Notes: generated by a model not told the origin, from the letters alone. A stretch of DNA of 64,000 nucleotides from Patescibacteria group bacterium (GCA_038064575.1 JBBTST010000005.1:1382-65381), one strand, 5' to 3'. Positions 27,692-53,440 are shown, numbered from the stretch's first letter. Numbers and translations: made by a program.

Positions 27692-27703
27692 GTCGTTATT
27701 TTA

Positions 27704-29704: not shown

Positions 29705-29889
29705 TCGCTTTCGAAAAGCGTGTAAAGTTATGCCATGTGTGCTTTCATAGCAGTCTAAGCAATTATTAATAGTTTTATATGGAAACTGTTTGGCAGCAAA
29801 TATCTTATTACAAATATCGCAAGCTCTACTAACGCCATTCTCAAGATCTTCAATTTGAGCGTGTATGTTCTCAATTGTATTTGAAATTA

Positions 29890-34551: not shown

Positions 34552-34815
34552 ACAGTTATTTTATCACTACTACAACATTTGGATACTATAGTATAGTAGA
34601 CACTTTTCTACACTTATCAACAGATATGCTGTCACAACAACGAATAGTGCTTGACCTGTGATTTTATTAATGCTAATTTGTATTTAGTTCTTTTGGAACT
34701 TGCGTTTGGGCGCGCACTAAAAATCCCAACTTTATAGATAAACAATCGCCTATAACAGGCACGTAGATACCACTTATAGATAACTAAGTTAATAAATTTA
34801 ATTAATGGAGGTCAT

Positions 34816-36168
34816 ATGACTAACAAACTTAGTGGTATCAATGATGCCAAGCTACAAATATTTAATTTGAACATAAAGGATATTAATCCTTCCGCCTATA
34901 ACCCTCGAAAATGGGATAAGTATAAAATTGACCAATTAACCAAAAGTATTACTGACTTTGGTGTTGTAGATCCTTTAGTAATTAATTCCGCCGAAAACAG
35001 AAAGAATATAGTTATTGGCGGTCATTTTAGACTTAAAGTCTTAAAAGAAATGGGATATATCGAAGTCCCATGTGTGTATGTAAATATCCCTGAGATTGAA
35101 CGTGAAAAAGAATTAAATTTAAGACTAAACAAAGCCGTTGGTGATTGGGATTTCAAACTTCTGGCTGAGTTTGATACATCCCTTTTATCAAACGTTGGTT
35201 TTTCAAGCGAAGAGTTAGATCAAATATTTGATATTGATGATTCACCAGAGCAATTTGATTTAGAAAAAGAACTTAATAAACTAAACATTAAAAATATCAC
35301 TATTAAAAAAGGCGATGTAATTTCTCTTGGAAATAGTAAATTAATGTGTGGGGATTCTACAGTCGAGGAGGATATGTTAAAGCTGATGAATGGAGAGAAA
35401 GCAGACATGTGCTTCACAGACCCACCCTATCTATTGGATTATTTAAACGGAAAAAAGAAAGGTGGTAAAGCAACAACAGGATTTGGAGCCAAAAGAAATC
35501 GCCGTTATCTCGAAACAGACACATTACCAGATGACTTCACAGAGAAATGGATGGCGAACATTAATAAAATCCAAAACGATAGTTTCTCCATAATAGTCTA
35601 CGAAAATTGGAAGAACATAAGAACTATTTGGGGAGAACTTGAGAAATATTGGAAGGTAAAAAACATGATTGTTTGGAGATTACCCAACAGGGTGCAGGGT
35701 TTTTCTGGTAAATATAGATTCTTTTCCAAACATGATATTGCTATGGTTGGAGCTTCACCTAACACAGATATTGAGTTCAACATGGAAACAGAGCCAGATG
35801 GTTTGCAGGAGGAATATGAAACAGCTCTTTATGCGATATCAGGTAAACCACAATGGGAAAGCTATAAAAAAGGCAAGAAGTATCAGCCAACAGACTTTAT
35901 TGATTACAAAGCCTCCGATGAAAAGAGCTCTGGGCAAGGAGTAGTATTTGGTACTAAGCCAATCGAAATATTAATACCATACATAAAAGTATTAACTAGA
36001 AGAAATGAATTAATCGTTGAACCTTTTGGTGGTAGTGGATCTACTCTTATTGCAGCAACAAAAATGAGACGTAGGTGTTATGTAATGGAGAAATCTCCTG
36101 TTTATGCTGAAGTTATTGTTAAAAGATGGGAGAAGTTAACTGGTTTAAAGGCGAAAGTTAATGCCTAA
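34816..36168 (+). CDS. ParB-like nuclease domain / DNA (amino) methyltransferase fusion
   Basis: 450 aa. The N-terminal ParB/Srx fold is present (DPLVIN...GGHFRLKVLKEMGY). The C-terminal MTase has motif IV DPPY (MCFTDPPYL) and motif I FGGSGST, a beta-class order consistent with N6-adenine (or N4-cytosine) methylation. Confidence 0.75.
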   Translation: MTNKLSGINDAKLQIFNLNIKDINPSAYNPRKWDKYKIDQLTKSITDFGVVDPLVINSAENRKNIVIGGHFRLKVLKEMGYIEVPCVYVNIPEIEREKELNLRLNKAVGDWDFKLLAEFDTSLLSNVGFSSEELDQIFDIDDSPEQFDLEKELNKLNIKNITIKKGDVISLGNSKLMCGDSTVEEDMLKLMNGEKADMCFTDPPYLLDYLNGKKKGGKATTGFGAKRNRRYLETDTLPDDFTEKWMANINKIQNDSFSIIVYENWKNIRTIWGELEKYWKVKNMIVWRLPNRVQGFSGKYRFFSKHDIAMVGASPNTDIEFNMETEPDGLQEEYETALYAISGKPQWESYKKGKKYQPTDFIDYKASDEKSSGQGVVFGTKPIEILIPYIKVLTRRNELIVEPFGGSGSTLIAATKMRRRCYVMEKSPVYAEVIVKRWEKLTGLKAKVNA

Positions 36169-36538
36169 GCGTACTAAATATGTTGAGGATAAAATACAGG
36201 AGGATAAGGACAGACTCCTAGCTGAATTGGAAAAAATGCCTGTAGTTGAGGTAGCTTGTAAAAGAACTGGTATATGTAGAGCTACCTACTATCGTTGGAT
36301 TAATGAAGACAAGGCTTTTAGCCAATCAGCACGTATAGCTCAAATAGAAGGTATTAAGTTAATAAATGACGCAATGGAATCTACACTAATTTCGTTAGCT
36401 TTAGAAAATAGAAGCATGGGTGCTATCAGGTTTTGGCTTGAAAATAGACACGCTGATTACAAGCAAAACAAAGAGCTAGAGAGGTCTAGGAAGCTGAAGA
36501 ATAATTTTACTAAGCTATCCAGACCGGATATCTATTAG
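36161..36538 (+). CDS. terminase small subunit-like HTH DNA-binding protein
   Basis: 125 aa with an N-terminal HTH (VACKRTGICRATYYRWINED) and a C-terminal RFWLENRHADY, reminiscent of phage TerS (Terminase_2-like) proteins. It overlaps the MTase stop by 8 nt, consistent with an operon. Confidence 0.4.
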   Translation: MPKRTKYVEDKIQEDKDRLLAELEKMPVVEVACKRTGICRATYYRWINEDKAFSQSARIAQIEGIKLINDAMESTLISLALENRSMGAIRFWLENRHADYKQNKELERSRKLKNNFTKLSRPDIY

Positions 36539-36569
36539 TAGATAGCGTTATTTTGTTATAATCACATTA

Positions 36570-36690
36570 GAAAAATTAACAGCCGCGAAAAAAAATCCAC
36601 TGTAAAAAGTGGTGCATGGAACCTGAAAAGGGGCTACCCTATTGGGTTTCATGCTTCGCGGCTGTTACTACAAGGGTAGTCCCTTTTTGT
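36570..36690 (+). other. structured RNA-like element ending in a U-tract (candidate ncRNA / attenuator / intrinsic terminator)
   Basis: It is preceded by an extended -10 promoter, TGTTATAAT, at 36553-36561. An 11-bp outer stem pairs ACAGCCGCGAA with TTCGCGGCTGT. It encloses a CCACT/AGTGG hairpin and a 10-bp stem GCATGGAACC/GGTTTCATGC. A loop segment, GGGCTACCCT, is complementary to the downstream AGGGTAGTCCC, which is followed by TTTTTGTTTG. Confidence 0.35.
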
Positions 36691-36782
36691 TTGTGGTAAC
36701 AATTAGCGAACTCATGCAAAACCTTGCATATATACCTTTGTAGCGTCATCAATGTCGCAGTAATAATTTATAGGAGGTATAT

Positions 36783-37325
36783 ATGTATTTATACGAGGCT
36801 AAAAAATTTAATGTTAAGTACATTACAGGTATAGGAGCAGTCACTAAGCCTACAGATAGTTATTTGTTATCTATAGAAAGTGAAGGAATAAAACTTTGGC
36901 GTCTTCTATCACCAACAGTATTAATAAAATGGACAGATATTCAGAAAATTTCCTCAGAAACACAAAATGAAGCATCCAAGTCCTTATCAATGGGCAAAGC
37001 TGCAGTAGGTTTAGTATTACTGGGACCGCTCGGTGCCTTAATAGGAGCAGGAATGGGGTCTAAAAAGCCACTCTTTGTTTCTATTTCTTACAAAGACTCG
37101 TATGGAGAAATTTGCGAGTGCTTGGTGCAAACTAAACAAGCACATGAAATAGCTACGAAACTAAACAACGAGAGAAAAGAATATTATAGAAAAAACAATA
37201 TTCCACTAACAACTGAAACGGTTTCAAATTTAGATCAGCTTGAAAAGCTAGCAGAACTTAAAGATAAAGGTGTTATTTCTTCGGATGAGTTTGAGGCTAA
37301 GAAGAAACAATTACTAGACTTGTAA
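36783..37325 (+). CDS. SHOCT-domain protein
   Basis: 180 aa with a central hydrophobic Gly-rich segment and a C-terminal SHOCT motif (LEKLAELKDKGVISSDEFEAKKKQLL). Confidence 0.5.
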   Translation: MYLYEAKKFNVKYITGIGAVTKPTDSYLLSIESEGIKLWRLLSPTVLIKWTDIQKISSETQNEASKSLSMGKAAVGLVLLGPLGALIGAGMGSKKPLFVSISYKDSYGEICECLVQTKQAHEIATKLNNERKEYYRKNNIPLTTETVSNLDQLEKLAELKDKGVISSDEFEAKKKQLLDL

Positions 37326-38111
37326 ATTTCTAGCTAATCTTTCTGAGTCAGTGGTTTCTTTTTGTTTTATTTGAGCATAAATTTCCTGTTTTTTCTTTTC
37401 CCTGTCGGCAATGGCGATTTCATGCTCGATGATCCGATAACCTTGTAGAGCTTTTTTAAAAGCAGTTCTATCACTTTCTCTTTCTAACAAAAGTACTATG
37501 TATGCATTTAAAGATATATTTTCATCTAATGCGATATTCTTAAGAAAACTAGCTAACCCTTCCATATTTTCTGCTAAGTGCTCAAAATTTTTCACAGCAA
37601 CATTAATACCTGAAAGTAATGCAGTATTTAGACTATCTAATAACCTATTAATAGTTTCCGTATCTGTATTTATTCGCTCAATTGTTAACCAGTAGTCAGA
37701 CACTTCGTTTATTAGATTTATATCACCTAAATCTAGTTCTATGTCCTCAAGAATTTTAAGCTTTGGAAATCTATGAGCTGGCATTACTGGAGGATTCTGT
37801 CTTAGTTTCTGTACTGAACTTTCAAGAGAATATACAAGCCTACTGATGTTATCCTGCTGTTTTACAATTGTATATTCAACCCTTACCAAGGCATCATGAT
37901 GCCTTTTATATCTAGTCCGCCTTTTGTCTTGTTCACTGGAAAGTCTTTCAAACAAAAATGCAAAGAATGCTCCCGAAAAGCCTCCTAAAAAAGCAATCCA
38001 TGCTTCTCTGGAAAAGTTTTGATTAGTCTGATTAATAAGGGTTTCTAGATTAGATATTAGTTTATCCATATCTTGAATGTTTATTTGCTGTTGTGACTGA
38101 AACCAATGCAT
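37314..38111 (-). CDS. hypothetical protein with an N-terminal TM helix
   Basis: 265 aa, coiled-coil rich, with no domain recognised. Convergent with the SHOCT gene, overlapping by 12 nt. Confidence 0.35.
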   Translation of the reverse strand: MHWFQSQQQINIQDMDKLISNLETLINQTNQNFSREAWIAFLGGFSGAFFAFLFERLSSEQDKRRTRYKRHHDALVRVEYTIVKQQDNISRLVYSLESSVQKLRQNPPVMPAHRFPKLKILEDIELDLGDINLINEVSDYWLTIERINTDTETINRLLDSLNTALLSGINVAVKNFEHLAENMEGLASFLKNIALDENISLNAYIVLLLERESDRTAFKKALQGYRIIEHEIAIADREKKKQEIYAQIKQKETTDSERLARNLQV

Positions 38112-38171
38112 GCGAGGATTTTACCACTACCTATGGACTTTCTTAAGTTATTGCGTCATCCATTGGTATAG

Positions 38172-39467
38172 ATGACGCAGAATACAATCTCGCCAAAATA
38201 CTGTTTATACGCTCGTAAAAGCTCCGAATCGGACGAGAGGCAAGCCATGTCAATCGATTCACAAATCAAGGAAATGACGGCACTAGCCGAAAAAGAAGGT
38301 ATAGAAATAGTAGATATAAAGCAGGAAAGCCATTCGGCAAAGATTTCAGGTTCCAGACCACTATTTCTAGAAATGATAAAGGAGCTAAACTACGGAAAGT
38401 ACAATGCTATTCTAACCTGGGCACCTGATAGGTTAAGCAGAAACGCTGGGGATTTAGGCTCACTAGTAGACCTTATGGACAGGGTTAAGCTCTTACATAT
38501 AAGGACTATATCTCAATCTTTTTCAAACAATCCAAACGAAAAGTTTCTACTGATGATTCTCTGCTCACAAGCAAAGCTTGAAAATGACAACAGAGGTTTA
38601 AATGTCAAAAGAGGTATAAGAACAAAATGTGAGATGGGCTGGCGACCCTGCCCTGCTCCTATTGGTTATATCAACTATTCTCATGGCGGAACTAAAAAGG
38701 TAATGGTAAACAAAGAGGTAGCCCCATTAGTAAAAGAACTTTTCGATTTAGTAGCTACGAAAAAGTACAGCGGTAGGGACATAAAAAAGTATCTGGATAA
38801 AGATGGAAGATTAAACAAAGCTACTGGAAAGAAAATACCATTAAGCATGATTTACAGAATGCTAAAAACACCTTTCTACTACGGTGAGTTCCAATATCCA
38901 GAAGGTGATGGCCCTTGGTATAAAGGTGCTCACGAACCAATTATTCCAAAATGGCTCTTTGATAAAGTCCAACAAAAGCTGGTAGTACCTAGAAAGTCTA
39001 AGTGGGGCGCTAAAGACTTTTTATTTAAGAATGTTTTCAGGTGCGCTTACTGCGGAGCAACCATAGTAGGAGAAGAAAAATTCAAGATGCTTAAAGTAGG
39101 CCAGAAACGAACTTATATTTACTATCACTGCACAAAACAAGTAGATGCAGAGTGTCCCGAAATGTATGTAGCAGAAAACATACTAATTGGATCCTTGATT
39201 AGCTACATACAGCTTATTGAAGTAAAAAAGCCAGACACATTACAACTAACAAATGAAGTAAAAAAGAGCATGAGGAAGTTTTCAGGTCTAAGAGCGCATT
39301 TACTAACTGAACAAAATGTAACGTTACCTGCAGAGTTAACATTTACTGAATACCTAAAATACATTATTTACAACGGAACGGATACTGAGAAACACGAAGT
39401 AATTGAATCACTTCCAAAACCACTATATATACATAATGGCACTATTTATTCACATCCTTTAGGATAA
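38172..39467 (+). CDS. large serine recombinase (resolvase/integrase family)
   Basis: 431 aa. The N-terminal resolvase catalytic domain has the nucleophile serine context YARKSSESDE...SIDSQ. A recombinase domain and a C-terminal zinc ribbon (CAYCG...YYHCTKQ) follow, as in large serine recombinases. Confidence 0.8.
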   Translation: MTQNTISPKYCLYARKSSESDERQAMSIDSQIKEMTALAEKEGIEIVDIKQESHSAKISGSRPLFLEMIKELNYGKYNAILTWAPDRLSRNAGDLGSLVDLMDRVKLLHIRTISQSFSNNPNEKFLLMILCSQAKLENDNRGLNVKRGIRTKCEMGWRPCPAPIGYINYSHGGTKKVMVNKEVAPLVKELFDLVATKKYSGRDIKKYLDKDGRLNKATGKKIPLSMIYRMLKTPFYYGEFQYPEGDGPWYKGAHEPIIPKWLFDKVQQKLVVPRKSKWGAKDFLFKNVFRCAYCGATIVGEEKFKMLKVGQKRTYIYYHCTKQVDAECPEMYVAENILIGSLISYIQLIEVKKPDTLQLTNEVKKSMRKFSGLRAHLLTEQNVTLPAELTFTEYLKYIIYNGTDTEKHEVIESLPKPLYIHNGTIYSHPLG

Positions 39468-40054: not shown

Positions 40055-40128
40055 ATGCAGTTCTTGGCTGGGGAGCAGGGATTCGAACCCCAATAGGCAG
40101 CTCCAAAAGCTGCTGTCCTACCATTAGA
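40055..40128 (-). tRNA. tRNA-Gln (anticodon UUG)
   Basis: Hand-folded. A U1-A72 acceptor (TGGGGAG/CTCCCCA) with discriminator G and encoded CCA, as in bacterial tRNA-Gln. The anticodon stem is GCAGC/GCTGC with loop TTTTGGA. T-arm is GGGGTTCGAATCCC. Confidence 0.85.
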
Positions 40129-40276
40129 CGACTCCCCATCATTTCAAAACACCTTCAAATACCAAGAAGATTATATCATTTAGATGTAACTACTAATTAA
40201 TATAGGAAAACTAGCATTTTCTTCTGGTATCTATTCTAACAATTATATAGTCCGCAAACTTTGCTATAATTTTCTT

Positions 40277-40685: not shown

Positions 40686-40762
40686 TGGTGGGCCAGCATG
40701 GGCTCGAACCATGGACCTTCGCGATGTAAACGCGACGCTCTAACCAACTGAGCTACTAGCCC
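40686..40762 (-). tRNA. tRNA-Val (anticodon UAC)
   Basis: Acceptor GGGCTAG/CTGGCCC with one G-U pair, D-arm GCTCAGTTGGTTAGAGC, anticodon stem TCGCG/CGCGA with loop TTTACAT, T-arm GGTTCGAGCCC, and an encoded CCA. Confidence 0.85.
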
Positions 40763-41264: not shown

Positions 41265-41294
41265 TGGTGGTCTATTGTGAATGAAATTGCGAAC
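41265..41294 (+). repeat. 30-nt junction repeat TGGTGGTCTATTGTGAATGAA(A/G)TTGCGAAC, copy 1
   Basis: A second copy lies at 42619-42648. Both begin with TGGTGG (CCACCA on the minus strand), the same hexamer that ends tRNA-Phe. Confidence 0.6.
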
Positions 41295-41301
41295 CTTTTC
41301 A

Positions 41302-42525
41302 TTAAGAATCAAATGAATACGCAATTTTGTTAAACTTCTTATTTAGGTTCAACACTGTTGTTCTAACGTCCAGACCTTTCAGAGCCTGATCCACTACTTT
41401 AGCTAGCTCATTAGCATCTGTTTCTTTAAATCCCCTTCTAGTCAATTCTTGTGTTCCAATTCGTATAAATAATCTACCACCCAAAGGAGAATCAAAATTA
41501 GTAGAAATATTATTTTTTACCAATCGAGTGTATAGCTCAATACTCTCTCCCATATTATCTATAAACACATGGAACTGATGGTTATTTGAGTATTCACCGT
41601 TGTTTGCCTTTCTTACCTCATAACCTAATTCGGTAAATTTACTCGCCATGCTTCTTGAATTGCTAACAATTTGTTTTGCGTAATCTTGCCCAAACTCTTT
41701 CATTTCCAAAATTGTTATTGCTAGAGAAATTAAATGTGGCATATGTGGTGTTGAATATAAACAACCGTCTATAATGGCATTTCCTTTATCTGCTAATGCT
41801 TTATCTCTAAAGGCAATCATCCCTTTATGAGGTCCTGGTAGTGTTTTATGTGTATTTGCACATATAACATTCGCACCTTCAAGTAATGGGGCTTGAAATT
41901 GCTGACCCATTATTAAACCCATGGTGTGGCTTGCATCATAAATTATTATTACTTCATTCCCAATAGCCTCACGTAATTCTTTTAAATTGTGTGGATTAAG
42001 ATAATAAGAAACATCTAAATATATAGCTTTGGCATCTAGCTTTTTTACTAATTCTGAGGTCTTTTCTACATCAAATCTCAAATTTTTTAAATCATAGACC
42101 ACATAATCATGTTTTCTACCTACTCTTTCTAGTATACGTGCTGTTGCAAAATGCCCGCCGGCGTCTTTAGGCACAGTTAACACCATTTCGCCTGGGTTTG
42201 TGACTGACAAAATTGCAGACATCATTGCATGAACACCAGACAAAACATTCAAATTTACTGCATCTGCTGATAGCATTTCTTTAGCTGCCTCTGTTGCAAG
42301 GTGTATTAACTCCTCGACACTTTTAAATCCCAGTCCTAAGAAGTCTCCCATAGCAACTACTGCATTGGCATCTCCTCCACCAAAGTAATATCTATTTGAA
42401 ATACTGGAAGCTAGGAACATACGCGCTGTATTAGATATTCTATTTTCGTTTGCAGTTAAATGGATAAAGGAATCATTTCTGGCTACTTCGTTTGATATAC
42501 CATCTAAAACATGCTTAATTTTCAT
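41302..42525 (-). CDS. divergent serine hydroxymethyltransferase-like PLP-dependent enzyme
   Basis: 407 aa. THKTLPGPHKGMIAF matches the SHMT PLP-lysine motif T(T)HKTLRGPRGG. N-terminal LTANENRIS...SNRYYFGG parallels SHMT IASENFTS...RYYGG. The rest is divergent. Confidence 0.5.
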   Translation of the reverse strand: MKIKHVLDGISNEVARNDSFIHLTANENRISNTARMFLASSISNRYYFGGGDANAVVAMGDFLGLGFKSVEELIHLATEAAKEMLSADAVNLNVLSGVHAMMSAILSVTNPGEMVLTVPKDAGGHFATARILERVGRKHDYVVYDLKNLRFDVEKTSELVKKLDAKAIYLDVSYYLNPHNLKELREAIGNEVIIIYDASHTMGLIMGQQFQAPLLEGANVICANTHKTLPGPHKGMIAFRDKALADKGNAIIDGCLYSTPHMPHLISLAITILEMKEFGQDYAKQIVSNSRSMASKFTELGYEVRKANNGEYSNNHQFHVFIDNMGESIELYTRLVKNNISTNFDSPLGGRLFIRIGTQELTRRGFKETDANELAKVVDQALKGLDVRTTVLNLNKKFNKIAYSFDS

Positions 42526-42544
42526 AACTAAAGTATTTTAACAC

Positions 42545-42609
42545 TAAAAAGTTCGACTTCCCACTCTCTATCAAGGCAGAAACTACAGGATTATATTGTT
42601 AGGACAAAG
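42545..42609 (+). repeat. 65-nt leader repeat, copy 1 (identical copy at 43471-43535)
   Basis: Exact 65-nt identity. Each copy lies immediately 5', in gene orientation, of a minus-strand cassette gene. It is followed by 3 variable nt and then ATTTGATGGTGG. Confidence 0.7.
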
Positions 42610-42618
42610 CGTATTTGA

Positions 42619-42648
42619 TGGTGGTCTATTGTGAATGAAGTTGCGAAC
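42619..42648 (+). repeat. 30-nt junction repeat, copy 2
   Basis: See the copy at 41265-41294. One mismatch (A/G). Confidence 0.6.
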
Positions 42649-43445
42649 TATTTCAGTTCTTTAACAGACTCCCACATTGAAAGCAATTTAGATACGCTAT
42701 TTTCGTAAGCATTGTTTTCCAATTTAAACTCCTCATTCAATTTCAGCTTCTCCGCTTCTGTGATATGAAGCCATTCTTCGTATCTTTCTATTCGTGAAGC
42801 ATGTCGCTCTGTATTTTTGAGAATATTTCTTTTAGATTCTATTGGGCAATTTGGATCCTCATATAAAAGTCTTTTTGTTTTCATCATGTTTTGCAAATCA
42901 AATATCATCAATCTTTGTTTGTTATCTCCCTCATTTACTACCGCTATATTATCTGGGTGAAAATCATCAAATACACCCATCTCTACTAGTGCTTTTTTAG
43001 AACCCCATATTAACCGCACCATCTGTGCCCTCAGTTCAGGGTTTTGTTCAAAATATTTATCAAATCTATTATCGTATTTCTCTTTGGAATCTTGCGATTC
43101 AATAACCTTTTCTAAAGTATCACCTTTAAATCTTTTTTGAATTGTAAAATATACCTTATTACCTTCTTTATCATTTCCTAACACCCAATGAGTAGGAATA
43201 AAATTATCTCCAAATATTAATTCAGATTGTAAAAATTGTTGAGTCGCTTGTAGTTCCTTAATATTTGTTTCCGATTGGCTCATTTCATAGGCTTTTTCGT
43301 GTTTTGTAGTCCCATCCGGTTTCAATGGGTTGAATTCCTTTATAACCCACTCTGGACCCAACTCTTTTACTATTGATTCAAAACCTCTACCAAGTTCTTG
43401 ACCAGGTGTTTGTTCAAATGGAAAATTCTCAATATTATGACTCAT
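42648..43445 (-). CDS. protein-kinase-like (APH/choline-kinase-like) fold protein
   Basis: 265 aa. It has a Gly-rich loop LGRGFESIV, a Lys in WVIKEF, a catalytic-loop-like FHPDNIAV and a DFG-equivalent IFDLQ. Confidence 0.45.
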   Translation of the reverse strand: MSHNIENFPFEQTPGQELGRGFESIVKELGPEWVIKEFNPLKPDGTTKHEKAYEMSQSETNIKELQATQQFLQSELIFGDNFIPTHWVLGNDKEGNKVYFTIQKRFKGDTLEKVIESQDSKEKYDNRFDKYFEQNPELRAQMVRLIWGSKKALVEMGVFDDFHPDNIAVVNEGDNKQRLMIFDLQNMMKTKRLLYEDPNCPIESKRNILKNTERHASRIERYEEWLHITEAEKLKLNEEFKLENNAYENSVSKLLSMWESVKELK

Positions 43446-43470
43446 ATAAATATTTTACATCTTTTAAAAT

Positions 43471-43535
43471 TAAAAAGTTCGACTTCCCACTCTCTATCAA
43501 GGCAGAAACTACAGGATTATATTGTTAGGACAAAG
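43471..43535 (+). repeat. 65-nt leader repeat, copy 2
   Basis: Identical to 42545-42609. It abuts ATTTGATGGTGG, which runs directly into the 3' end of tRNA-Phe. Confidence 0.7.
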
Positions 43536-43544
43536 AGGATTTGA

Positions 43545-43620
43545 TGGTGGGAAGGGCGAGAATCGAACTCGCATAGCCGGTTTTTCAGACCGGTGCAATG
43601 ACCAACTTTGCTACCTTCCC
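43545..43620 (-). tRNA. tRNA-Phe (anticodon GAA)
   Basis: Acceptor GGGAAGG/CCTTCCC, anticodon stem CCGGT/ACCGG with loop CTGAAAA, T-arm GAGTTCGATTCTC, discriminator A, and an encoded CCA. Confidence 0.85.
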
Positions 43621-43674: not shown

Positions 43675-44754
43675 TTAGGATTCTATCAGATTTGCTTTTT
43701 CTAAGAAAGAAGTTGAAGGCTGTTTTACACTTTCATACTCTTCTACAGCACTATCAATAATAAGTTGCACAAAAAGCTCATAACTAAGCCCCGCAGCTGC
43801 AAGTTTAGAGGCCATAACACTCTTATCAAGTCCCGGATTAACATTTACTTCTATAACATAAGGCACATTATCTTTTGACAGTCTTAAATCTAGTCTAAAA
43901 TACCCGGTGATATCAAAGGTTTTTTGTGTTTTATACACTATATCCTGTATTCCCCCAAGTACAGAATCAGTTAATTCCGCAGGACAAGCTTCATCACAAT
44001 AGCTATTAGGTCCCCATTTGTGCTCAAAGTCACAAATATTCCATTTTCTGTTAGCATCAGGTATAAAAAGCCCTTCCAGAACAGGTAATATAACCAGATC
44101 TCTCCCTTTTTTGACAGTAAAAACTTCCAATTCTCTTCCCTCTATATATTCTTCTGCCAATGTTGCATCTTTATATTCTTCCTTAATTATATTTATTCTA
44201 TCTTTCAACTCATTAAAGTTCTTAACCACAGATTCTTGAGTAATACCAATACTGGAGTCAGCACTGTTTGGTTTTGTGATTAGAGGATACCTAAGACTGT
44301 ACTTCAAATAATCCTCACTGCTAATGAAGAGTTGATAGTTTGGTGTGGGGATTTTGTATTTAACCAGATAATCTTTGGTTCTTGCCTTATCTATTGTAAT
44401 AGCACCGGAAAATGAAGAAGAGCCGGTCATAGGTATACCAAGCGCTTCAATAAAAGTTGTGATGGAACAAAACGAATTAGGCAGGTCATCAAACCCCTCC
44501 AACAAGTTAAAAATAAGATCAGCTTTTAAGTTTGGCAATATATTTAGAGTTTTTCTTGTAACATTGACTAGATCTGCTTCATAACCAAGCTTCAATAAAC
44601 ACTCATACACATCTTTAGCGCATTGAAAGTTATCATCGTCCGCAAGTTTATCTAAAGGATTCCCTTTCTTTACTTCATTAATAGAGTTATATAAAACTGC
44701 AATTTTTTTTATTAAGGCAGGCATAATTATTATACTAAAAATGATAACGCACAT
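43675..44754 (-). CDS. ATP-grasp ligase of the D-Ala-D-Ala ligase (Ddl) family, third paralogue
   Basis: 359 aa with a Ddl-like N-terminal KIAVLYNS...LIFNLLEG and a central ATP-grasp region. Confidence 0.6.
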   Translation of the reverse strand: MCVIIFSIIIMPALIKKIAVLYNSINEVKKGNPLDKLADDDNFQCAKDVYECLLKLGYEADLVNVTRKTLNILPNLKADLIFNLLEGFDDLPNSFCSITTFIEALGIPMTGSSSFSGAITIDKARTKDYLVKYKIPTPNYQLFISSEDYLKYSLRYPLITKPNSADSSIGITQESVVKNFNELKDRINIIKEEYKDATLAEEYIEGRELEVFTVKKGRDLVILPVLEGLFIPDANRKWNICDFEHKWGPNSYCDEACPAELTDSVLGGIQDIVYKTQKTFDITGYFRLDLRLSKDNVPYVIEVNVNPGLDKSVMASKLAAAGLSYELFVQLIIDSAVEEYESVKQPSTSFLEKANLIES

Positions 44755-47997: not shown

Positions 47998-49098
47998 TTA
48001 AGGCATTTTATATAACAGCCTGTACTGAGGAGTTCTTATACTAAGCGGATTGACAACTCCCAAAATATTATTAAATTTATAGCTTAACCCTGAAAACAGT
48101 TGGTCTATAAAAGAGCCCGACTTTATCTTAACAACTTTGTACTTTTGTAAATTCGCTTTTAATGCAGTTGCTGCAATAGCACTATCTAAAGTCCCAACCT
48201 CATCAATAAGCCCTGCATTTTTTGCAGCAATTCCGGAGTAAATTTTTCCCTCTGCCAATTCGGAGGCTTTCTCAAAAGGTATTTTCCTGCCCTCTGAAAC
48301 TCTGCTTAAAAACATATTGTAGGCATCATTTATCATTAAATCTATCATTTCATGTTCTTCTTTTGTCATTTCCCTGGAATCGCTTAGTATATCTTTATAT
48401 TTTCCGGCTTTAAAAGTATTCTTTTTCACGCCTACTTTTTCATATAAGCCCTCAAGGTTATAAGCTTCCATAATTACTCCAATTGAACCTGTTATTGTTG
48501 CAGGATTGGCTATTATATAGTCTCCCGCTGAGGAGATATAGTATCCCCCGGAAGCTGCTATATCACCCATCAGAACAACTATTGGAATATCCTTCTCTTT
48601 TTTAAAATCTTTAATCACTTCAAATATTCTGTCTGAAGCTACCGCTGAACCTCCGGGAGAAGAAACATAAATCAATAAAGCTTTGAAATCCTTATCTGCT
48701 CTAACAATATTAAGGAAATTTTCTACTCCAACTGGAGTGATAGCTTTTAATCCTCCAATAAAAGGTTGGTTTGCCACCTCTTCTTCCACAATTTCTCCGC
48801 TTAGTTCCAGGTAGGCTATTTTGTCTTCTCCTCCGTAGTCTCTATACACCTCCTGAGAGGAGTCTTTATAATCGGTTAAAATTTTGTCTCCGGAAACACC
48901 TATTAACCCAGTGACTATTGCAAATAACACAAGCAGATAACCTAGCACAATTGAAGCCATGCTTCCAATTCCTCTAAAAGTCCACTTTAGCATCTCAGAA
49001 ATAAGTTTTAGAATAAAAGAGAAAAATCTTTCAAAAATATCCTTCTCCTTTGGATTTTGCAGTTCATTTGAATTTAAAGGGGCAGAGTCAATTAGCAT
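47998..49098 (-). CDS. sppA: signal peptide peptidase SppA (S49 family)
   Basis: 366 aa with an N-terminal TM helix and a ClpP/crotonase-fold S49 region carrying the SppA serine context (SSPGGSAVASD...SGGYYISSAGD...GSIGV). Confidence 0.7.
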   Translation of the reverse strand: MLIDSAPLNSNELQNPKEKDIFERFFSFILKLISEMLKWTFRGIGSMASIVLGYLLVLFAIVTGLIGVSGDKILTDYKDSSQEVYRDYGGEDKIAYLELSGEIVEEEVANQPFIGGLKAITPVGVENFLNIVRADKDFKALLIYVSSPGGSAVASDRIFEVIKDFKKEKDIPIVVLMGDIAASGGYYISSAGDYIIANPATITGSIGVIMEAYNLEGLYEKVGVKKNTFKAGKYKDILSDSREMTKEEHEMIDLMINDAYNMFLSRVSEGRKIPFEKASELAEGKIYSGIAAKNAGLIDEVGTLDSAIAATALKANLQKYKVVKIKSGSFIDQLFSGLSYKFNNILGVVNPLSIRTPQYRLLYKMP

Positions 49099-49230
49099 AT
49101 ATAAGCTTGGTAATTATAACCCAAAAGATTAGACAACATAAGGAGTAGTATTTTCAAGCCCCTCATTTAGTGTTACTTATACTTTTACATAGTGTTTTTA
49201 AATGCGCACCCTCACTTCCACCTTCTCACA

Positions 49231-49306
49231 TGGTGCGCCCTAGAGGATTTGAACCCCTAACCCCTTCGTCCGAAGCGAAGTGCTCTATCCATTGAGCTAA
49301 GGGCGC
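49231..49306 (-). tRNA. tRNA-Arg (anticodon UCG)
   Basis: Acceptor GCGCCCT/AGGGCGC, anticodon stem CTTCG/CGAAG with loop CTTCGGA, T-arm GGGGTTCAAATCCTC, and an encoded CCA. Confidence 0.85.
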
Positions 49307-49356
49307 ATCAAAAGCTTCAATTGCCATTTATTATACCGCATTGTACTATTTAGGCT

Positions 49357-49809
49357 ATGTCTGAGGAAAAAAAGAAGGTTTTGGTTTTGCTTCTAGCTTC
49401 TGCATCAGTTCTATTAAGTATTGCGTATTTATACTTCCAAAAACCTGCTGCAAAATCAGTAGCAGAAAAAAAGGAAGAAAAAAATCAAAAACCTTCAAGG
49501 TTTAGAATTGATCTGACTATAATAAATGGCAAAACCCTTCAAAATTTTCAACCTAAGGTGGATGAAGGCTCTACCATACTTGATTTCATGGAAGATCTAA
49601 GGCAAAAAGATGAGCTAAAATATGAGATCACCAAATATTCTTATGGAAACATAATAGAATCCATAAATACTGTAGAAAATAACAAACAATTGGGCATGTC
49701 TTGGAAGCTATACATTAATAATAATCTTTCAGAAGAACTAATAGACAAGACTAAAGTTGATAGAGATAATAAATATAAGTGGATATATGAGAAAGATACA
49801 CAAAAATGA
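49357..49809 (+). CDS. membrane-anchored hypothetical protein
   Basis: 150 aa with an N-terminal TM helix. No domain recognised. Confidence 0.4.
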   Translation: MSEEKKKVLVLLLASASVLLSIAYLYFQKPAAKSVAEKKEEKNQKPSRFRIDLTIINGKTLQNFQPKVDEGSTILDFMEDLRQKDELKYEITKYSYGNIIESINTVENNKQLGMSWKLYINNNLSEELIDKTKVDRDNKYKWIYEKDTQK

Positions 49810-50189
49810 GTGAGCTAAATGACATGTTAAACTCTCACCACCCTAAAAGGCACGCCAGAAGGTTCTATCACGCCTTTAAAGGCTTGGAGCATGTGTTTAG
49901 AAATGAAGCTAATTTTAGGATACATGTGGTGGCAGCTGTTACTGCGTCTCTTCTTGCCTCTTACCTTAACTTCTCAACCACAGAATGGCTGGTCCTTGTA
50001 TTAACCATGGGCTTTGTTCTGATTACTGAGATTCTTAATACCCTGATTGAAGAAATGATAGACCACCTAATCACTGAGCATCATGAAGCTGCAAGAATAA
50101 TAAAAGACGTTGGTGCAGCATCTGTTTTAATGGCTGCTATTATAAGTGTGGTTTCAGGAGCACTCTTATTTATTCCCAAGCTTTTTTAA
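49806..50189 (+). CDS. dgkA: diacylglycerol / undecaprenol kinase DgkA
   Basis: 127 aa with three TM helices and the DgkA motif EILNTLIEEMID. Overlaps the upstream gene by 4 nt. Confidence 0.7.
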   Translation: MSELNDMLNSHHPKRHARRFYHAFKGLEHVFRNEANFRIHVVAAVTASLLASYLNFSTTEWLVLVLTMGFVLITEILNTLIEEMIDHLITEHHEAARIIKDVGAASVLMAAIISVVSGALLFIPKLF

Positions 50190-50804
50190 CAATTGATTTA
50201 GTTTTAGCTTAAGCTCCCTCCTGTTTTCCTCTTCAGAAAGTATGTGAGCAACCCCCGGCAATACGGATAGAACTATTATTAAAACAAGTATAGGAAGCAG
50301 GTATTTATCAACATCCGGTATCAAAGCCCCCAGGAAATAGCCAAGCAGAGTCAAACCAAAAGCCCATATAATCCCGCCAATAACATTGTAAGAAACAAAA
50401 GTCTTATAGTGCATGTCTGCAGCTCCGGCTACAATTGGCGCAAAAGTCCTTACTGCGGGAACAAATCTGGCCAATATAATTGTCTTGCCACCATGTTTTT
50501 CATAAAATTTCTTGGCTGACTCTAAATGCCTCTTTTTAAACAGCAAACTATCTTCTTTATTAAATACCTTATTTCCAAGCTTTCTTCCAAACCAGTACCC
50601 TACGGAATCTCCGGAAATTGCAGCTATTGTAAGAAGAGGCAATAATATATAAATATTTAGTAGGTTTTGTGAGGCCAAAAAACCTGCCGTAAACAAAAGG
50701 CTATCTCCCGGTAAAAAAAACCCAAAAAAAAGACCAGATTCAGCAAAAACTATTGAAAAAAGCCCAAGATAACCCGTACTTCTAATAAGTTCTTCCAAAT
50801 GCAT
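50166..50804 (-). CDS. DedA family membrane protein
   Basis: 212 aa with a DedA/SNARE-associated pattern (GYLGLFSIVFAESGLFFGFFLPGDSLLF). Confidence 0.7.
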   Translation of the reverse strand: MHLEELIRSTGYLGLFSIVFAESGLFFGFFLPGDSLLFTAGFLASQNLLNIYILLPLLTIAAISGDSVGYWFGRKLGNKVFNKEDSLLFKKRHLESAKKFYEKHGGKTIILARFVPAVRTFAPIVAGAADMHYKTFVSYNVIGGIIWAFGLTLLGYFLGALIPDVDKYLLPILVLIIVLSVLPGVAHILSEEENRRELKLKLNQLLKKLGNK

Positions 50805-50826
50805 TGTAAGATTCTACACTAAACTT

Positions 50827-51354
50827 TTATTTGGTGCAGGCGTTAGCATTCCAAAGTCCCCTACCCTCTTCTTCCGCTAACTTCTGAGCTTTTTTAAACT
50901 CGATTTGAAACTTATACGGGTACTTATAGGTATATTCGTAAGCATACCCTTCTTTAATCATAAGTTCATTAATAAAGGGGCCATCTTGTAGGTACGCATA
51001 CCTTAACAACCTCCCATATCTATCAACCACATCCTGCGACTCATCCAAGTCAAGTCGAACATACTTATTATATATAAGCTCTTTTGCCTTAGAACTTGCC
51101 TCTTTACCAAAACACTCAACTTTTCTTCTTGGATCTACTGTTTCAGGAGTATTAACACCTATAAGTCTAATTCTTTGTTTTTTGCCTTGAATTACTACAT
51201 CAAACGTATCCCCATCAACTACTTTTTGAACAAGATAATAAGCTTGCCCATCAGTACCTTGCACTTCACTAGGCCTGCCAAATGAGGCAATAACATAAAT
51301 CAAAAGGCTCGTAGCCAAAGCCAAAACAATCAGAACCTTTTTTTGTTTTGTCAC
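50827..51354 (-). CDS. secreted thermonuclease (SNase-like)
   Basis: 175 aa with a signal anchor and an SNase fold (VVDGDTFDV...RLIGVNTPE...RYGRLL.Y). Confidence 0.65.
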   Translation of the reverse strand: MTKQKKVLIVLALATSLLIYVIASFGRPSEVQGTDGQAYYLVQKVVDGDTFDVVIQGKKQRIRLIGVNTPETVDPRRKVECFGKEASSKAKELIYNKYVRLDLDESQDVVDRYGRLLRYAYLQDGPFINELMIKEGYAYEYTYKYPYKFQIEFKKAQKLAEEEGRGLWNANACTK

Positions 51355-51381
51355 AAATGCATTTTAGTATATTTTGAATTT

Positions 51382-52095
51382 TTAGAACACGGGATTTAAT
51401 GAGTAAATCATATAAAATCCTAGTATCAGCAAGAAAAGCCCTATGCCAAGCCTCATAAGACCTCTATGCTCTTTCCTCCAGCTCTCCAAAGCGTCAGAGG
51501 AAGTGCCAAAATAAGCAATACCAATGATTACAAACAAAGGCAGCACAAAAATCAAATTATACAGAAGCAGCAAAGGAACAGCAGATGAATAAAGACCCTT
51601 AGACAAAAGTCCAAGAATTGCAAGATATGGAGCGCCCGTACAAGGAAGCTCAACAGCAACAACAAAAAGCCCTAACATAACGGTAGTTGCAATTAATAAA
51701 AATGGATGGCTTTGCTCCATTTTCTCCATTTTACTCGTGTACATTTTAATTCTCTCAGCTCCACCTGGGAGAATCTGAAGAGAAAAGCCTTTCCCATACC
51801 AAAAGTAGTCCTTAATTTCCAAAAGACCCGCAACTATAGCTATAAGTGCCGCCATCCAATAAAAAAAGTTAGAAACTCCGGTTGATGCTGTAAATTTCAG
51901 TATTCCTATACCAAGCACCAAATATGCTACATATACAACAGATGTATACAATAGGCCAAAAAGTACCATTTTTTTAGCACTTTTAAAAAGCTTTGTCATG
52001 AAGGCTATCAAAAAAATCAGGACTCCAAAGACACAAGGATTGATACTATCTACCAAAGCTGCCACAATTACTATAGGAAGTGTTATTTCTTGCAT
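51382..52095 (-). CDS. cytochrome c-type biogenesis / thiol-disulfide transporter CcdA-like protein
   Basis: 237 aa with six TM helices and conserved Cys in TM1 (NPCVFGV) and TM4 (LPCTGAPY). Confidence 0.65.
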   Translation of the reverse strand: MQEITLPIVIVAALVDSINPCVFGVLIFLIAFMTKLFKSAKKMVLFGLLYTSVVYVAYLVLGIGILKFTASTGVSNFFYWMAALIAIVAGLLEIKDYFWYGKGFSLQILPGGAERIKMYTSKMEKMEQSHPFLLIATTVMLGLFVVAVELPCTGAPYLAILGLLSKGLYSSAVPLLLLYNLIFVLPLFVIIGIAYFGTSSDALESWRKEHRGLMRLGIGLFLLILGFYMIYSLNPVF

Positions 52096-52101
52096 AGCTA
52101 T

Positions 52102-52935: not shown

Positions 52936-53397
52936 CTATTTATTTTTTTTACTAATAAAATACAACAAAGCCAAGGGTGCTCCCCAGTTTGCCCATCTCT
53001 CAACAAAATCCCAAATCGGTTCCTTTACTAAAGGTCTTAGAAGAGCCGTAAAGAATCCCCATACAATAGCCCATAATAGAGCCGGTTTCATAGGCTTAAC
53101 CAAAATACTTAATGCTATAAGTATATCAAAAGCACCCACTAACATAAGCATTGTTGTAGCCATAGGGGTATCAACACCTGTCAATTTTGAAATCCAGCCA
53201 ATCCATTGAGCTTTTTTTTGAAGCGCAAAAATTCCATGTCCAAAAAACTCTCCAAACACTGCTACCCTTAGAGCCCAAACAACATATTTCTCCTGTAGGT
53301 ATTTTTCCATAAAATCCCCTTTCAGTAATTTTAAGTACTTATAATATTCTGTATCACAAAATAACACATGTAAAGGGGATATAACGCATAGACACAA
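52936..53397 (-). CDS. DoxX family membrane protein
   Basis: 153 aa with four TM helices. Immediately upstream of the VKOR fusion, with no gap. Confidence 0.5.
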   Translation of the reverse strand: MCLCVISPLHVLFCDTEYYKYLKLLKGDFMEKYLQEKYVVWALRVAVFGEFFGHGIFALQKKAQWIGWISKLTGVDTPMATTMLMLVGAFDILIALSILVKPMKPALLWAIVWGFFTALLRPLVKEPIWDFVERWANWGAPLALLYFISKKNK

Positions 53398-53440
53398 GCT
53401 AATATGACCTCTTACTAACTGTAACTTTAAAGTGGGTGGT

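Follow-up and report, generated by a model that had tools for sequence, protein, structure and literature searches.

A candidate accretion hot spot at tRNA-Phe in a WWE3 chromosome, with modules bounded by a tRNA-end-like element

Gene order and repeats beside tRNA-Phe

The stretch of 64 kb analysed here, referred to as the window, comes from WWE3 (Patescibacteria), an uncultured groundwater bacterium, and contains a tRNA-Phe locus at which two short sequences are repeated around protein-coding genes. Reading away from the tRNA, the order is tRNA-Phe, B, a kinase-like gene, A, B, an SHMT-like gene and A, where B is a leader repeat and A a 30-nt junction element (Table 1). The tRNA, the leaders, the junction elements and the ORFs all lie where a sequence-only reading of the window had placed them. 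The CCA of tRNA-Phe is encoded, and the tRNA ends in ...GTTCGATTCTCGCCCTTCCCACCA, i.e. CCCACCA. Three independent Hainich groundwater assemblies give the same layout with at least 99.95% identity, a Logan contig runs across the middle junction and a 104.7-kb contig (NCBI source) also has the kinase gene, so that misassembly can be dismissed as the source of the layout. The Hainich population yielded no strain without the kinase module, and its contigs are all at least 99.95% identical.

Table 1. Positions of genes, tRNAs and repeats around tRNA-Phe, counted from the first nucleotide of the window
Feature	Position	Strand	Remarks
ddl-like ATP-grasp gene	43675..44754	-	Pfam Dala_Dala_lig_C; backbone, upstream of tRNA-Phe
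tRNA-Phe(GAA)	43545..43620	-	ARAGORN and Rfam, 72.6 bits; anchor of the array
B copy 1, leader before the kinase-like gene	43462..43544	-	65-nt identical core 43471-43535
Predicted own proximal promoter of the kinase gene, GATGTAAAATATTTAT	43446..43461	-	-10 box TAAAAT 6 nt before ATG
Kinase-like (APH/ePK-fold) gene, 265 aa	42648..43445	-	Rare accessory family
A copy 1, GTTCGCAACTTCATTCACAATAGACCACCA	42619..42648	-	30-nt element after the kinase gene
B copy 2, native promoter and leader of the SHMT-like gene	42536..42618	-	Identical core 42545-42609
SHMT-family PLP enzyme gene, 407 aa	41302..42525	-	Pfam SHMT 6e-30; widespread Patescibacteria family
A copy 2, GTTCGCAATTTCATTCACAATAGACCACCA	41265..41294	-	7 nt past the SHMT stop codon
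VOC/bleomycin-resistance-like gene, 125 aa	40809..41186	-	Pfam Ble-like_N and Glyoxalase
tRNA-Val(TAC)	40686..40762	-	Far boundary of the variable interval; synteny in relatives
VOC/glyoxalase-like gene, 130 aa	40277..40669	+	Second variable interval, tRNA-Val to tRNA-Gln
tRNA-Gln(TTG)	40065..40138	-	End of the conserved tRNA cluster
Large serine recombinase, 431 aa	38172..39467	+	Pfam Resolvase, Recombinase, Zn_ribbon_recom; just past tRNA-Gln

The repeats are real and far beyond chance. The identical 65-nt core of B lies inside an 89-nt repeat of 95.5% identity (42536-42624 and 43462-43550), and a 64-nt search pattern taken from the leader matched twice in the window, with none expected (100 shuffles). 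The two copies of the junction element TGGTGGTCTATTGTGAATGAARTTGCGAAC differ by one mismatch, and again none would be expected by chance. Exact, 3-mismatch and blastn-short searches of the 64-kb window recovered no third copy of either repeat: the two B and two A copies are all at this locus, and A is absent after the other ~60 genes. Within these 64 kb, the repeats are therefore not a generic promoter and terminator, an explanation that the sequence-only reading had named as fatal to its proposal, although copies of A or B may be commoner genome-wide; the only generic part of B is an extended -10 box at its 3' end. The first G of A copy 1 also belongs to the stop codon TAG of the kinase gene, A copy 2 is followed by unique sequence (GTTGAAAG...), and the 125-aa VOC gene has neither A nor B of its own.

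The TATAAT within B had been proposed as a promoter carried by each cassette, but it lies ~70 nt upstream of the start codons. The kinase and SHMT genes each appear to possess their own -10 box (TAAAAT or TGTTAAAAT) 6-9 nt before the ATG, a geometry that recurs in 13 of the 62 ORFs of the window. In B copy 2, the extended -10 box TGTTAAAAT begins 18 nt before the ATG, and the proximal promoter of the kinase gene is kept upstream of kinase homologues elsewhere.

The 265-aa kinase-like protein has no sequence match in Pfam, NCBIfam or PDB and belongs to a rare family, with only 8 clusters among 5.8 billion sequences. Its assignment is borne out at the level of fold: the AF2 model (pLDDT 82, pTM 0.81) shows a bilobal kinase fold, for which Foldseek against PDB returned APH(2'')-IVa, APH(2'')-IIIa and B-Raf (probability 0.99-1.0, E ~1e-5) with TM-scores of only 0.25-0.45. 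H163, N166, D161 and D183 are invariant in the family alignment, five of the eight members have Gly in place of the Asp of HPDN, and membership of the APH sequence family, with its conserved HxDxxxxN catalytic loop, was not found for this protein. The profile scores of the SHMT-like protein mark it as a predicted divergent SHMT-fold PLP enzyme (Pfam SHMT 104.6 bits, cut-off 27; NCBIfam SHMT 205 against a cut-off of 335; fluorothreonine transaldolase 256 against a cut-off of 650). As for the resistance function that had been suggested for the cargo, we found nothing beyond superfamily-level fold and domain matches.

The interval in related genomes

The conserved backbone of the region consists of tRNA-Gly, ddl, tRNA-Phe, a variable interval, tRNA-Val, a second variable interval and tRNA-Gln, and in all relatives the ddl-like gene keeps its synteny with tRNA-Gly and tRNA-Phe. 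In seven related loci, zero to eight genes are found between tRNA-Phe and tRNA-Val: the two tRNAs are separated by 0 nt in L026 and L027, by one ORF in L023 and L025, by four ORFs in L084, by at least six genes in L087 and L088 and by eight genes in L085. These genes are unrelated, which bears out the suggestion that genes are gained and lost on the 3' side of tRNA-Phe. Since related genomes hold quite different genes at this site, we regard it as a real insertion hot spot. The 125-aa VOC gene has no homologue at the relatives' loci (tblastn). Packing is tight in this clade, with the stop codon of the ORF abutting tRNA-Val in L023 and tRNA-Phe abutting tRNA-Val in L026. In addition, partial duplications of tRNA 3' ends were found in L023 (24 nt) and in L085 (19 nt of tRNA-Phe and 49 nt of tRNA-Val); displaced tRNA fragments are described as classical marks of integration into a tRNA gene (PMC4383910).

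Wider searches added little to this set. Scanning a genome collection with a ddl profile yielded two loci only, and a 20-mer from B had no match in this collection, whose genomes do not include this species. The degenerate pattern CCACCA...AACAATAT...TAGTTT gave 53 matches in metagenomes, all of which we attribute to chance because none is accompanied by a tRNA, A or the right part of B.

The SHMT-like gene is part of the older content of the interval. It belongs to a family of at least 689 proteins from Patescibacteria, the majority with 58-88% identity, and in two relatives the orthologue occupies the same place behind tRNA-Phe (88% amino acid identity in L085, 86% in L088), flanked by an orthologous B and an A-like trailer. 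The gene is thus not the accessory cassette that it had been taken for. In L085, the 3' end of tRNA-Phe is present as a copy, behind which come a colinear orthologue of B (~70% identical, by eye), the SHMT gene and a diverged A-like trailer, and there is no kinase gene. In L088, which has the orthologous, less diverged A trailer, the order is A, CCACCA, B, SHMT, A, with an HD-domain gene in the place of the kinase gene and a partial A after a further ORF. As the SHMT orthologues come with orthologous B and A, the 'leader' and the 'junction' are the SHMT gene's own flanks. It follows that the cassettes do not each bring their own leader and junction, as had been assumed; rather, the flanks of the SHMT-like gene have been copied around the kinase gene. 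The ends of the B copies are as predicted by an insertion that duplicated the B core: the tRNA-proximal end of copy 1 (TCAAAT-CCT) matches the orthologous tRNA-linked B of L085, and the right end of copy 2 (GTGTTAAAATAC) agrees with the B linked to the SHMT gene in L085 and L088. When the window is compared with L088, the right part of B shows 95% identity along 41 nt and the left part matches in short patches only.

The kinase-like gene, on the other hand, is a newcomer at the locus. In other lineages, it is found after tRNA-Leu(taa) (L014, L020, L022). DNA homology with the kinase homologue of L013 ends 2 nt past the stop codon and 15 nt before the ATG, and hence about where A and B begin. 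The tRNA-Leu(taa) locus of L020 has the same architecture as the locus in the window: an insert of 4.2 kb upstream of the kinase gene lies between the copies of a 71-nt direct repeat (80% identical), which is composed of 11 nt of the tRNA 3' end and a leader with GGAGTCGARCTTTT at its end. The kinase protein had no tblastn match in 50,697 phage records, and scans of a viral collection with A or B segments returned nothing or chance matches; a phage or plasmid origin was rejected on these grounds.

The junction element and tRNA 3' ends

The A family has the form (AAATA)GTTCGCA-N16/17-CCACCA. All copies start at, or at most ~17 nt past, a stop codon and end in CCACCA, as tRNAs do. A aligns with the 3' end of tRNA-Phe at GTTCG and CCACCA, and in the window these two blocks, CCACCA and the GTTCG 24 nt upstream of it, are all that the two have in common. 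In sequence, the conserved ends of A mimic a tRNA 3' end, one by the T-loop GTTCG and the other by the ACCA terminus. A is not a plain displaced tRNA fragment, because only GTTCG and CCACCA are common to both and A is 5-6 nt longer; the last 20 nt of any tRNA, with up to 3 mismatches allowed, have no match elsewhere in the window. The sequence CCACCATCAAAT, which had been described as shared by the tRNA end and the unit boundaries, is indeed present at the tRNA end and the middle junction, but the third junction reads CCACCAGTTGAA.

Several other identities for A were considered and rejected. The T-stem and acceptor pairings of a tRNA 3' half or minihelix cannot be drawn, and where A seems to pair with the end of the ORF before it, the pairing is not kept from one copy to the next. 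Neither frames nor peptides are conserved between copies, as read-through translation would require, and the ATAA-N6-TTAT organisation of a dif/Xer-like site cannot be read from the sequence. We also rejected a riboswitch or other structured RNA within B or A: neither has a match in Rfam at the gathering score or at E values up to 10, where only the tRNAs match, and both fold no better than shuffled sequence (Z-scores -0.8 to +1.4).

About nine copies of A were recovered from four lineages, in which A-like elements follow five different genes; A-type elements thus bound different genes in other genomes as well, in line with the sequence-only reading. In related loci, they occupy the place of the displaced tRNA 3' fragment. 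Scans of viral, metagenome and genome collections gave no further copies. A second type of the element is 97% identical between L029, where it follows the kinase gene, and two copies in L020, which flank a 200-aa ORF, despite only 58% identity between the L029 and L020 kinases. The kinases of L029, where A is present, and L013, where it is absent, are 84% identical; this pair is ambiguous as an insertion polymorphism, as A may have decayed in the L013 flank. Copies of A are more alike within a genome than between orthologues (CACAATAG in the window, CACGATAG in L088), so that local gene conversion fits as well as mobility.

Origin of the module and comparison with known systems

We propose, with a probability of about 0.5, that the locus is a tRNA-anchored accretion hot spot in the WWE3 chromosome, with a pseudo-tRNA-end element as the boundary of its modules. 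The ancestral state would have been tRNA-Phe-CCACCA, B, the SHMT-like gene and A, with B serving as promoter and leader of this gene and A as its 30-nt trailer. The rare kinase-like gene, residing after tRNA-Leu(taa) in other lineages, would then have been placed between tRNA-Phe and B as a module with its own proximal promoter and a copy of A behind it, joined via CCACCA to a copy of B. Modules might enter through recombination at the tRNA-end-like core, either by a site-specific recombinase acting in trans or by Campbell-type integration of a circular kinase-A-CCACCA-B molecule via homology in B. The architecture, the orthology of B and A with the flanks of the SHMT gene, the variability of the interval and the recurrence of A are observed, and we infer from them a circular intermediate, the point of crossover and any recombinase. 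A tyrosine or serine recombinase for the CCACCA core had been suggested as a thing to look for. No tyrosine recombinase was found among the ~50 window ORFs scanned or annotated (~46 against Pfam, and those of 47998-53445 by their precomputed annotation), and the large serine recombinase 4 kb away is the sole recombinase that the window yielded. Homologues of it lie beside tRNA-Gln in L028 and L085, and no recombinase in the window could be tied to A or B. The modules contain only kinase-like, SHMT-like and VOC genes, with no integrase next to the tRNA.

The structure seen in the window could also arise without a dedicated system, by CCACCA-primed tandem duplication and gene replacement or conversion. 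To this end, slippage or unequal exchange involving the CCACCA of the tRNA end and that at the end of A would duplicate B-SHMT-A, the kinase gene would replace one SHMT copy via short homologies (TCGAACTTTTT upstream, (T)AGTT downstream), and conversion would keep the repeats identical. CCACCA is indeed present at both breakpoints. The junction between B and the kinase promoter falls at GTCGAACTTTTT, which also occurs upstream of kinase homologues (L014, L020, L029) and of SHMT genes (L085, L088), and that between the kinase gene and A at TAGTT, also present in the A-less homologue of L013. In addition, the within-genome copies have common variants that are missing from orthologous copies, and the perfect run of 65 nt amid scattered mismatches resembles a conversion tract. 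However, such a course requires the precise replacement of one ORF, and the HD-domain gene before A-B in L088, where a partial A also follows a third gene, and the non-SHMT gene past the A-B junction in L029 mean that replacement must have recurred. It also leaves the nearly identical type-2 elements beside divergent kinases unexplained, and we consider local rearrangement without a mobile module somewhat unlikely.

A further possibility, which we regard as quite unlikely, is that selection maintains A and B as cis-acting signals for expression and that they are not recombination scars. B would then be a common promoter and operator co-regulating the kinase-like and SHMT-like genes, and A, by imitating the 3' end of a tRNA, would let the mRNAs of this tRNA-punctuated transcription unit undergo the same processing or stabilisation as the tRNAs next to them. 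The similarity of the right part of B to that of L088 may exceed neutral conservation, and the motif TCGMRCTTTT is found upstream of both gene families in several genomes and only three times in the window. The position of A at or shortly past stop codons, its tRNA-like terminus and the flush arrangement of genes and tRNAs in the clade (L023, L026) would also suit such a role, as would a small hairpin that, read from the sequence, both types of A could form just before CCACCA from different sequences. Yet these hairpins have only 4-5 bp, a terminator scan found nothing at A, and the bases past A are not T-rich (TCAAAT follows CCACCA in one copy, GTTGAA in the other). The lack of a significant fold and of an Rfam match, and the absence of A after the ~60 other genes of the window, also speak against expression signals, which would not account for the presence of copies beside different genes.

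A true integron or integron-like platform, with an IntI-type integrase capturing cassettes at attI and attC, is very improbable and effectively refuted: single-gene units parted by a repeated element give an architectural resemblance only, to which the A-B composite adds imperfect inverted ends (AGTTCGCAACTTC and GAAGTCGAACT), but there is no intI, no attC-type site and no tyrosine recombinase among the ORFs covered, the R''(RYYYAAC)/R'(GTTRRRY) cores are missing from A-B (the composite ends read TTCGCAAC and GTCGAAC, and type-2 A is without AAC), the genes are not promoterless cassettes under a common Pc promoter and appear to have their own -10 boxes, the copy before the first gene has 89 nt in common with the next junction, unlike an attI x attC product, and the SHMT unit is ancestral and syntenic.

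The accretion hot spot that we favour resembles several known systems in part. As in tDNA islands, which are catalogued by Islander (PMC4383910), insertion is directly 3' of a tRNA with a repeat from the tRNA 3' end, content varies between relatives, accretion is in tandem and related loci hold displaced tRNA fragments of 19-49 nt. Unlike in tDNA islands, the repeat in the window has only CCACCA in common with the tRNA and then continues for 83 nt into the leader of the downstream gene, A stands in the place of the displaced fragment without being a copy of the tRNA end, and the modules are single-gene units of ~1 kb without an integrase, with no tyrosine integrase found nearby. With integron cassette arrays, the locus has in common tandem single-gene units, a short repeated element and different genes at equivalent positions; it differs in the lack of intI, attC cores and a folded structure, in genes that are not promoterless, in a repeated element that is the native flank of a conserved housekeeping-type gene, and in being anchored at a tRNA and not at attI. 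pdif modules are Xer-dependent, have dif-like flanking sites and are found on Acinetobacter plasmids. Like them, the modules described here are small, without their own recombinase and bounded by sites of ~28-30 nt on which a host recombinase would act in trans, whereas A has no ATAA-N6-TTAT, the repeats are direct and not inverted, and the locus is chromosomal and next to a tRNA. REP/BIME-type repeats are likewise short conserved elements just past stop codons with several copies per region, but A is not palindromic, occurs only twice in 64 kb and is linked to variable loci flanked by tRNAs. Organelle tRNA punctuation and 't-elements' also place tRNA-end-like sequences at mRNA boundaries, with tRNAs and ORFs abutting; A differs in that no tRNA-like fold can be drawn, and the likeness here is one of sequence alone. 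A search of the literature on CPR integrons and tRNA-linked islands found nothing specific.

The genomes of Patescibacteria (CPR) are tiny, and the ways in which they acquire genes are poorly known. The locus provides a concrete and recurrent route, in which small promoter-bearing modules are taken up into the gaps of a conserved cluster of tRNAs (Phe-Val-Gln, with Leu in other lineages), and in several divergent genomes the limits of the modules are marked by a short element similar to the 3' end of a tRNA. It also corrects a tempting mis-annotation, as the cargo is no demonstrated resistance island. Should A prove to serve as an expression signal, it would be informative about the way in which mRNAs are set apart within leaderless transcription units punctuated by tRNAs; should it prove to be a site of recombination, a new minimal cassette system would be defined, with A as a practical means of detecting accessory genes in CPR metagenomes. 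One might speculate further, although we think it unlikely, that A is the attachment site of an undescribed gene-capture system of Patescibacteria, in which single-gene modules with promoters are inserted serially at tRNA 3' ends by a recombinase encoded elsewhere and the pseudo-tRNA-end of each module re-creates the target. Such a tRNA-end capture system would be a functional analogue of the integron, built on tRNA-end mimicry.

Layout of the tRNA-Phe locus

The repeated leader and junction element that the sequence-only reading had described at tRNA-Phe were confirmed in position and are reproduced in independent assemblies. The window is assigned to candidate division WWE3 (Patescibacteria) by source names and its closest homologues. 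Two minus-strand genes, coding for a protein-kinase-like protein and an SHMT-family PLP enzyme, are each preceded by a copy of a leader repeat (B) and followed by a short element ending in CCACCA (A). The leader repeat is 89 nt long and 95.5% identical between its copies, begins at CCACCA and encloses a run of 65 identical nucleotides (42545-42609 and 43471-43535). No further copies of A or B were found elsewhere in the 64-kb window, and none are expected by chance. The arrangement is present at an identity of at least 99.95% in three independent Hainich groundwater assemblies, the middle junction is bridged by one short-read contig, and the kinase-like gene is also located on a 104.7-kb contig with an NCBI source. 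As these agree, an assembly artefact can be ruled out as the origin of the layout. The species' MAGs include the NCBI locus tags AAB443_02160 and AAB443_02165, located on 104.7-kb and 67.6-kb contigs. Logan unitigs from several runs (L004-L006, L009, L011, L012) stop inside the B repeats (window 42545-43500 and 42574). Breaks in short-read graphs at these repeats may explain why contexts of such modules, for instance that of contig L029, are frequently truncated in public assemblies.

Features of the tRNA-Phe locus and of the block beyond tRNA-Gln
Feature	Position	Strand	Remarks
tRNA-Phe(GAA)	43620-43545	minus	3' end reads ...GTTCGATTCTCGCCCTTCCCACCA
Leader B, copy 1		minus	between tRNA-Phe and 265-aa ORF
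265-aa kinase-like ORF	43445-42648	minus	
Element A, copy 1	42648-42619	minus	30 nt, GTTCGCAACTTCATTCACAATAGACCACCA
Leader B, copy 2		minus	between A copy 1 and 407-aa ORF
407-aa SHMT-family ORF	42525-41302	minus	
Element A, copy 2	41294-41265	minus	one mismatch to copy 1
Unique sequence		minus (as read)	78 nt, between A copy 2 and VOC/Ble-like ORF
125-aa VOC/Ble-like ORF	41186-40809	minus	followed by tRNA-Val
Large serine recombinase	38172-39467		block beyond tRNA-Gln
SHOCT protein	36783-37325		block beyond tRNA-Gln
ParB_N-N6/N4 methyltransferase fusion	34816-36168		block beyond tRNA-Gln
1553-aa AAA_11/AAA_12 helicase	29890-34551		block beyond tRNA-Gln
RNase_H_2-domain protein	27704-29197		block beyond tRNA-Gln
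Shedu SduA_C protein	24493-25653		block beyond tRNA-Gln

Related loci, located via SHMT orthologues and the adjacent ddl-like gene, have a common backbone of tRNA-Gly, ddl (or GH57), tRNA-Phe, tRNA-Val and tRNA-Gln, and DNA-level alignment among them is limited to these backbone elements. Between tRNA-Phe and tRNA-Val, there is nothing in L026 and L027 (0-nt spacer), one ORF in L023 and L025, three genes in the window, four ORFs in L084, one of them coding for an HD-domain protein, and eight genes in L085; in L087 and L088, at least six genes follow tRNA-Phe before the contig ends short of tRNA-Val. The gain and loss suspected from the sequence is thus borne out by zero to eight genes in place of an invariant content, and as gene content differs among relatives, the interval is a real gain-and-loss hot spot. 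Gene packing is extreme in the clade of L026 and L023: the two tRNA genes abut directly in L026 (2374-2526), and an ORF stop codon directly precedes the first base of tRNA-Val in L023 (7134-7137). A second D-Ala-D-Ala-ligase-like ATP-grasp gene lies at 647-1660 of the window, 43 kb from the ddl-like gene at tRNA-Phe.

A resident SHMT-like gene and a newcomer

The 407-aa ORF codes for a divergent PLP enzyme of the SHMT fold, with 689 matches in Patescibacteria at E below 1e-20; the 120 matches listed are all 58-88% identical to it. This profile fits a core gene and not an accessory one. In L085, whose SHMT is 88% identical at the amino acid level, the sequence behind tRNA-Phe begins with a 121-nt insert and continues with 19 nt exactly duplicated from the tRNA 3' end and then a B orthologue, which is colinear, about 70% identical as estimated by eye, and holds CCACCAT.AAT-CCT and ...GTGAAGTCGCACTTTTTAGTGCTAAAATAC. 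The SHMT gene and a diverged A-like trailer come next, and the kinase-like gene is absent from this locus. The order in L088 (86% amino acid identity) is tRNA-Phe, a 197-aa ORF, a partial A, an HD-domain ORF, a full A, B, SHMT and A, where the full A terminates in CCACCA directly before B, and the right part of B matches the window at 95% identity across 41 nt. As B and A accompany the SHMT orthologues in both genomes, they are therefore the native upstream and downstream flanks of the SHMT-like gene, inherited with it behind tRNA-Phe. Furthermore, the tRNA-side end of B copy 1 (CCT) equals that of the tRNA-linked B in L085, and the gene-side end of B copy 2 (GTGTTAAAATAC) equals that of the SHMT-linked B in L085 and L088. 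The two copies in the window are mosaics, as expected if an insertion duplicated the B core.

For the 265-aa protein, no match was found in Pfam, NCBIfam or PDB sequences, and its family is tiny, with only 8 clusters among 5.8 billion sequences. Its AlphaFold model (pLDDT 82, pTM 0.81) retrieved aminoglycoside phosphotransferases and eukaryotic-type kinases in Foldseek with a probability of about 1, and a protein-kinase-like fold is therefore predicted. Residues D161, H163, N166 and D183 are invariant across the family (alignment A4; window gene 42648-43445). The canonical HxD aspartate is not conserved and is replaced by glycine in most members, and the protein may be an atypical kinase or a pseudokinase. 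Nothing points to a substrate. DNA homology to a 76% identical relative in L013 begins 15 nt before the ATG and stops 2 nt beyond the stop codon, its limits falling approximately where A and B begin. In three other lineages, the gene is found directly after tRNA-Leu(taa) (L014) or downstream of it, behind an EamA gene (L022) or a 4.2-kb insert (L020). The kinase-like gene is a newcomer at the window locus. Of the two cassettes proposed in the sequence-only reading, one, the SHMT-like gene, is a conserved gene already resident at the site, and it is its flanks that were copied; support for a resistance-island cargo is limited to superfamily labels.

The TATAAT noted in the leader is present, but lies about 70 nt upstream, and it is an extended -10 box nearer the ATG (TGTTAAAAT, starting 18 nt before it) that forms the 3' end of B. 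In 11 of 62 window ORFs, TGnTAnnnT begins 15-19 nt ahead of the start codon, and in 13 of 62 it lies within 12-40 nt (e.g. 2046, 13718, 40277, 41302-42525), against a background rate of 4.5%. This pattern suggests that leaderless or near-leaderless promoters and mRNAs are common in this WWE3 genome. Shine-Dalgarno sequences are often missing at window ORFs.

Boundary elements and displaced tRNA fragments

The architecture of the window is repeated at another tRNA in L020, in which a 71-nt direct repeat (80% identical), made up of the last 11 nt of tRNA-Leu and a leader ending ...GGAGTCGARCTTTT, is located on both sides of the insert upstream of the kinase-like gene. One motif, GTCGAACTTTT, terminates the repeat in L020 as well as in the window. 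The window contains just three copies of it, and several genomes have it upstream of kinase homologues and also of SHMT orthologues. A further 84-nt direct repeat in L020 (5015-5098 and 8277-8360, 79% identical) links the 3' end of a NUDIX gene with the region just downstream of the kinase homologue, annotated as a truncated methyltransferase, and could be another duplication boundary in that island.

In the short contig L029, a kinase gene 78% identical to that of the window is followed, at exactly the same stop-codon junction, by a diverged A (TAGTTCGCACATCCTGACAGATGGCCCACCA), a B-like stretch and a different gene. This second type of A is present twice in L020, on both sides of a 200-aa ORF, and is 97% identical to the L029 copy, with the kinases only 58% identical. 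All copies of A have in common a 5' (AAATA)GTTCGCA and a 3' CCACCA, and it is these stretches that can be aligned with tRNA-Phe, at its T-loop and its terminus. A occupies exactly the position of a true displaced tRNA fragment in L085.

Displaced tRNA fragments of 19, 24 and 49 nt were found at the L085 and L023 loci; such fragments are described as a classical sign that a tRNA gene has served as an integration site (PMC4383910). In L023 (6256-6526), a 171-nt insert separates tRNA-Phe from an exact copy of its last 24 nt, and the corresponding region in L085 (9692-9907) holds the 121-nt insert, which opens with a canonical hairpin-plus-T-tract terminator. The inserts are unrelated in sequence, neither has an Rfam match, and they resemble scars or miniature elements produced by integration at tRNA genes. 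Also in L085 (16438-16559), a 49-nt 3' segment of tRNA-Val, which starts in the anticodon loop and extends beyond the CCA, is tandemly duplicated 73 nt downstream at 98% identity.

Origin of the arrangement

We propose that a circular kinase-A-CCACCA-B molecule recombined with a resident tRNA-CCACCA-B, which would yield tRNA-B-kinase-A-B-SHMT-A; the exchange could have been site-specific, at the CCACCA core, or homologous and of the Campbell type, inside B. This is the best explanation, with a probability of roughly 0.5, and it would account for the mosaic B ends, the different genes before the same A-B junction in L088 and L029, the parallel tRNA-Leu event in L020 and the conservation of A across genomes. 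A cognate recombinase did not emerge: the only one found in the window is the large serine recombinase beyond tRNA-Gln, homologues of which adjoin tRNA-Gln in L085 and in L028, in the latter with the ORF overlapping the tRNA, and no tyrosine recombinase was found among the approximately 50 window ORFs examined. The block containing the serine recombinase (24493-39467) resembles an integrated mobile or defence element.

The same end product could arise by local tandem duplication via two CCACCA microhomologies if a gene was then replaced and the repeats underwent conversion. This route fits the 65-nt stretch of identity, which looks like a conversion tract, and the closer similarity of A copies within than between genomes. 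We consider it less likely than the insertion; it would need to have happened repeatedly, with different genes. Less probable still, though compatible with both insertion and duplication, is that B acts as a shared operator and A as a tRNA-end-like 3' signal: such roles would explain the conservation of both elements but leave their distribution unexplained, and neither element has fold or Rfam support. An integron is highly improbable: no intI was found among the window ORFs examined, attC cores and structure are lacking, and the genes have predicted promoters of their own.

Taken together, the locus is a variable site that is anchored at a tRNA and has repeated boundaries between modules, a variant of tDNA-associated accretion. 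The novelty, modest but real, lies in a short boundary element similar to a tRNA 3' end that recurs after unrelated genes in several Patescibacteria lineages.
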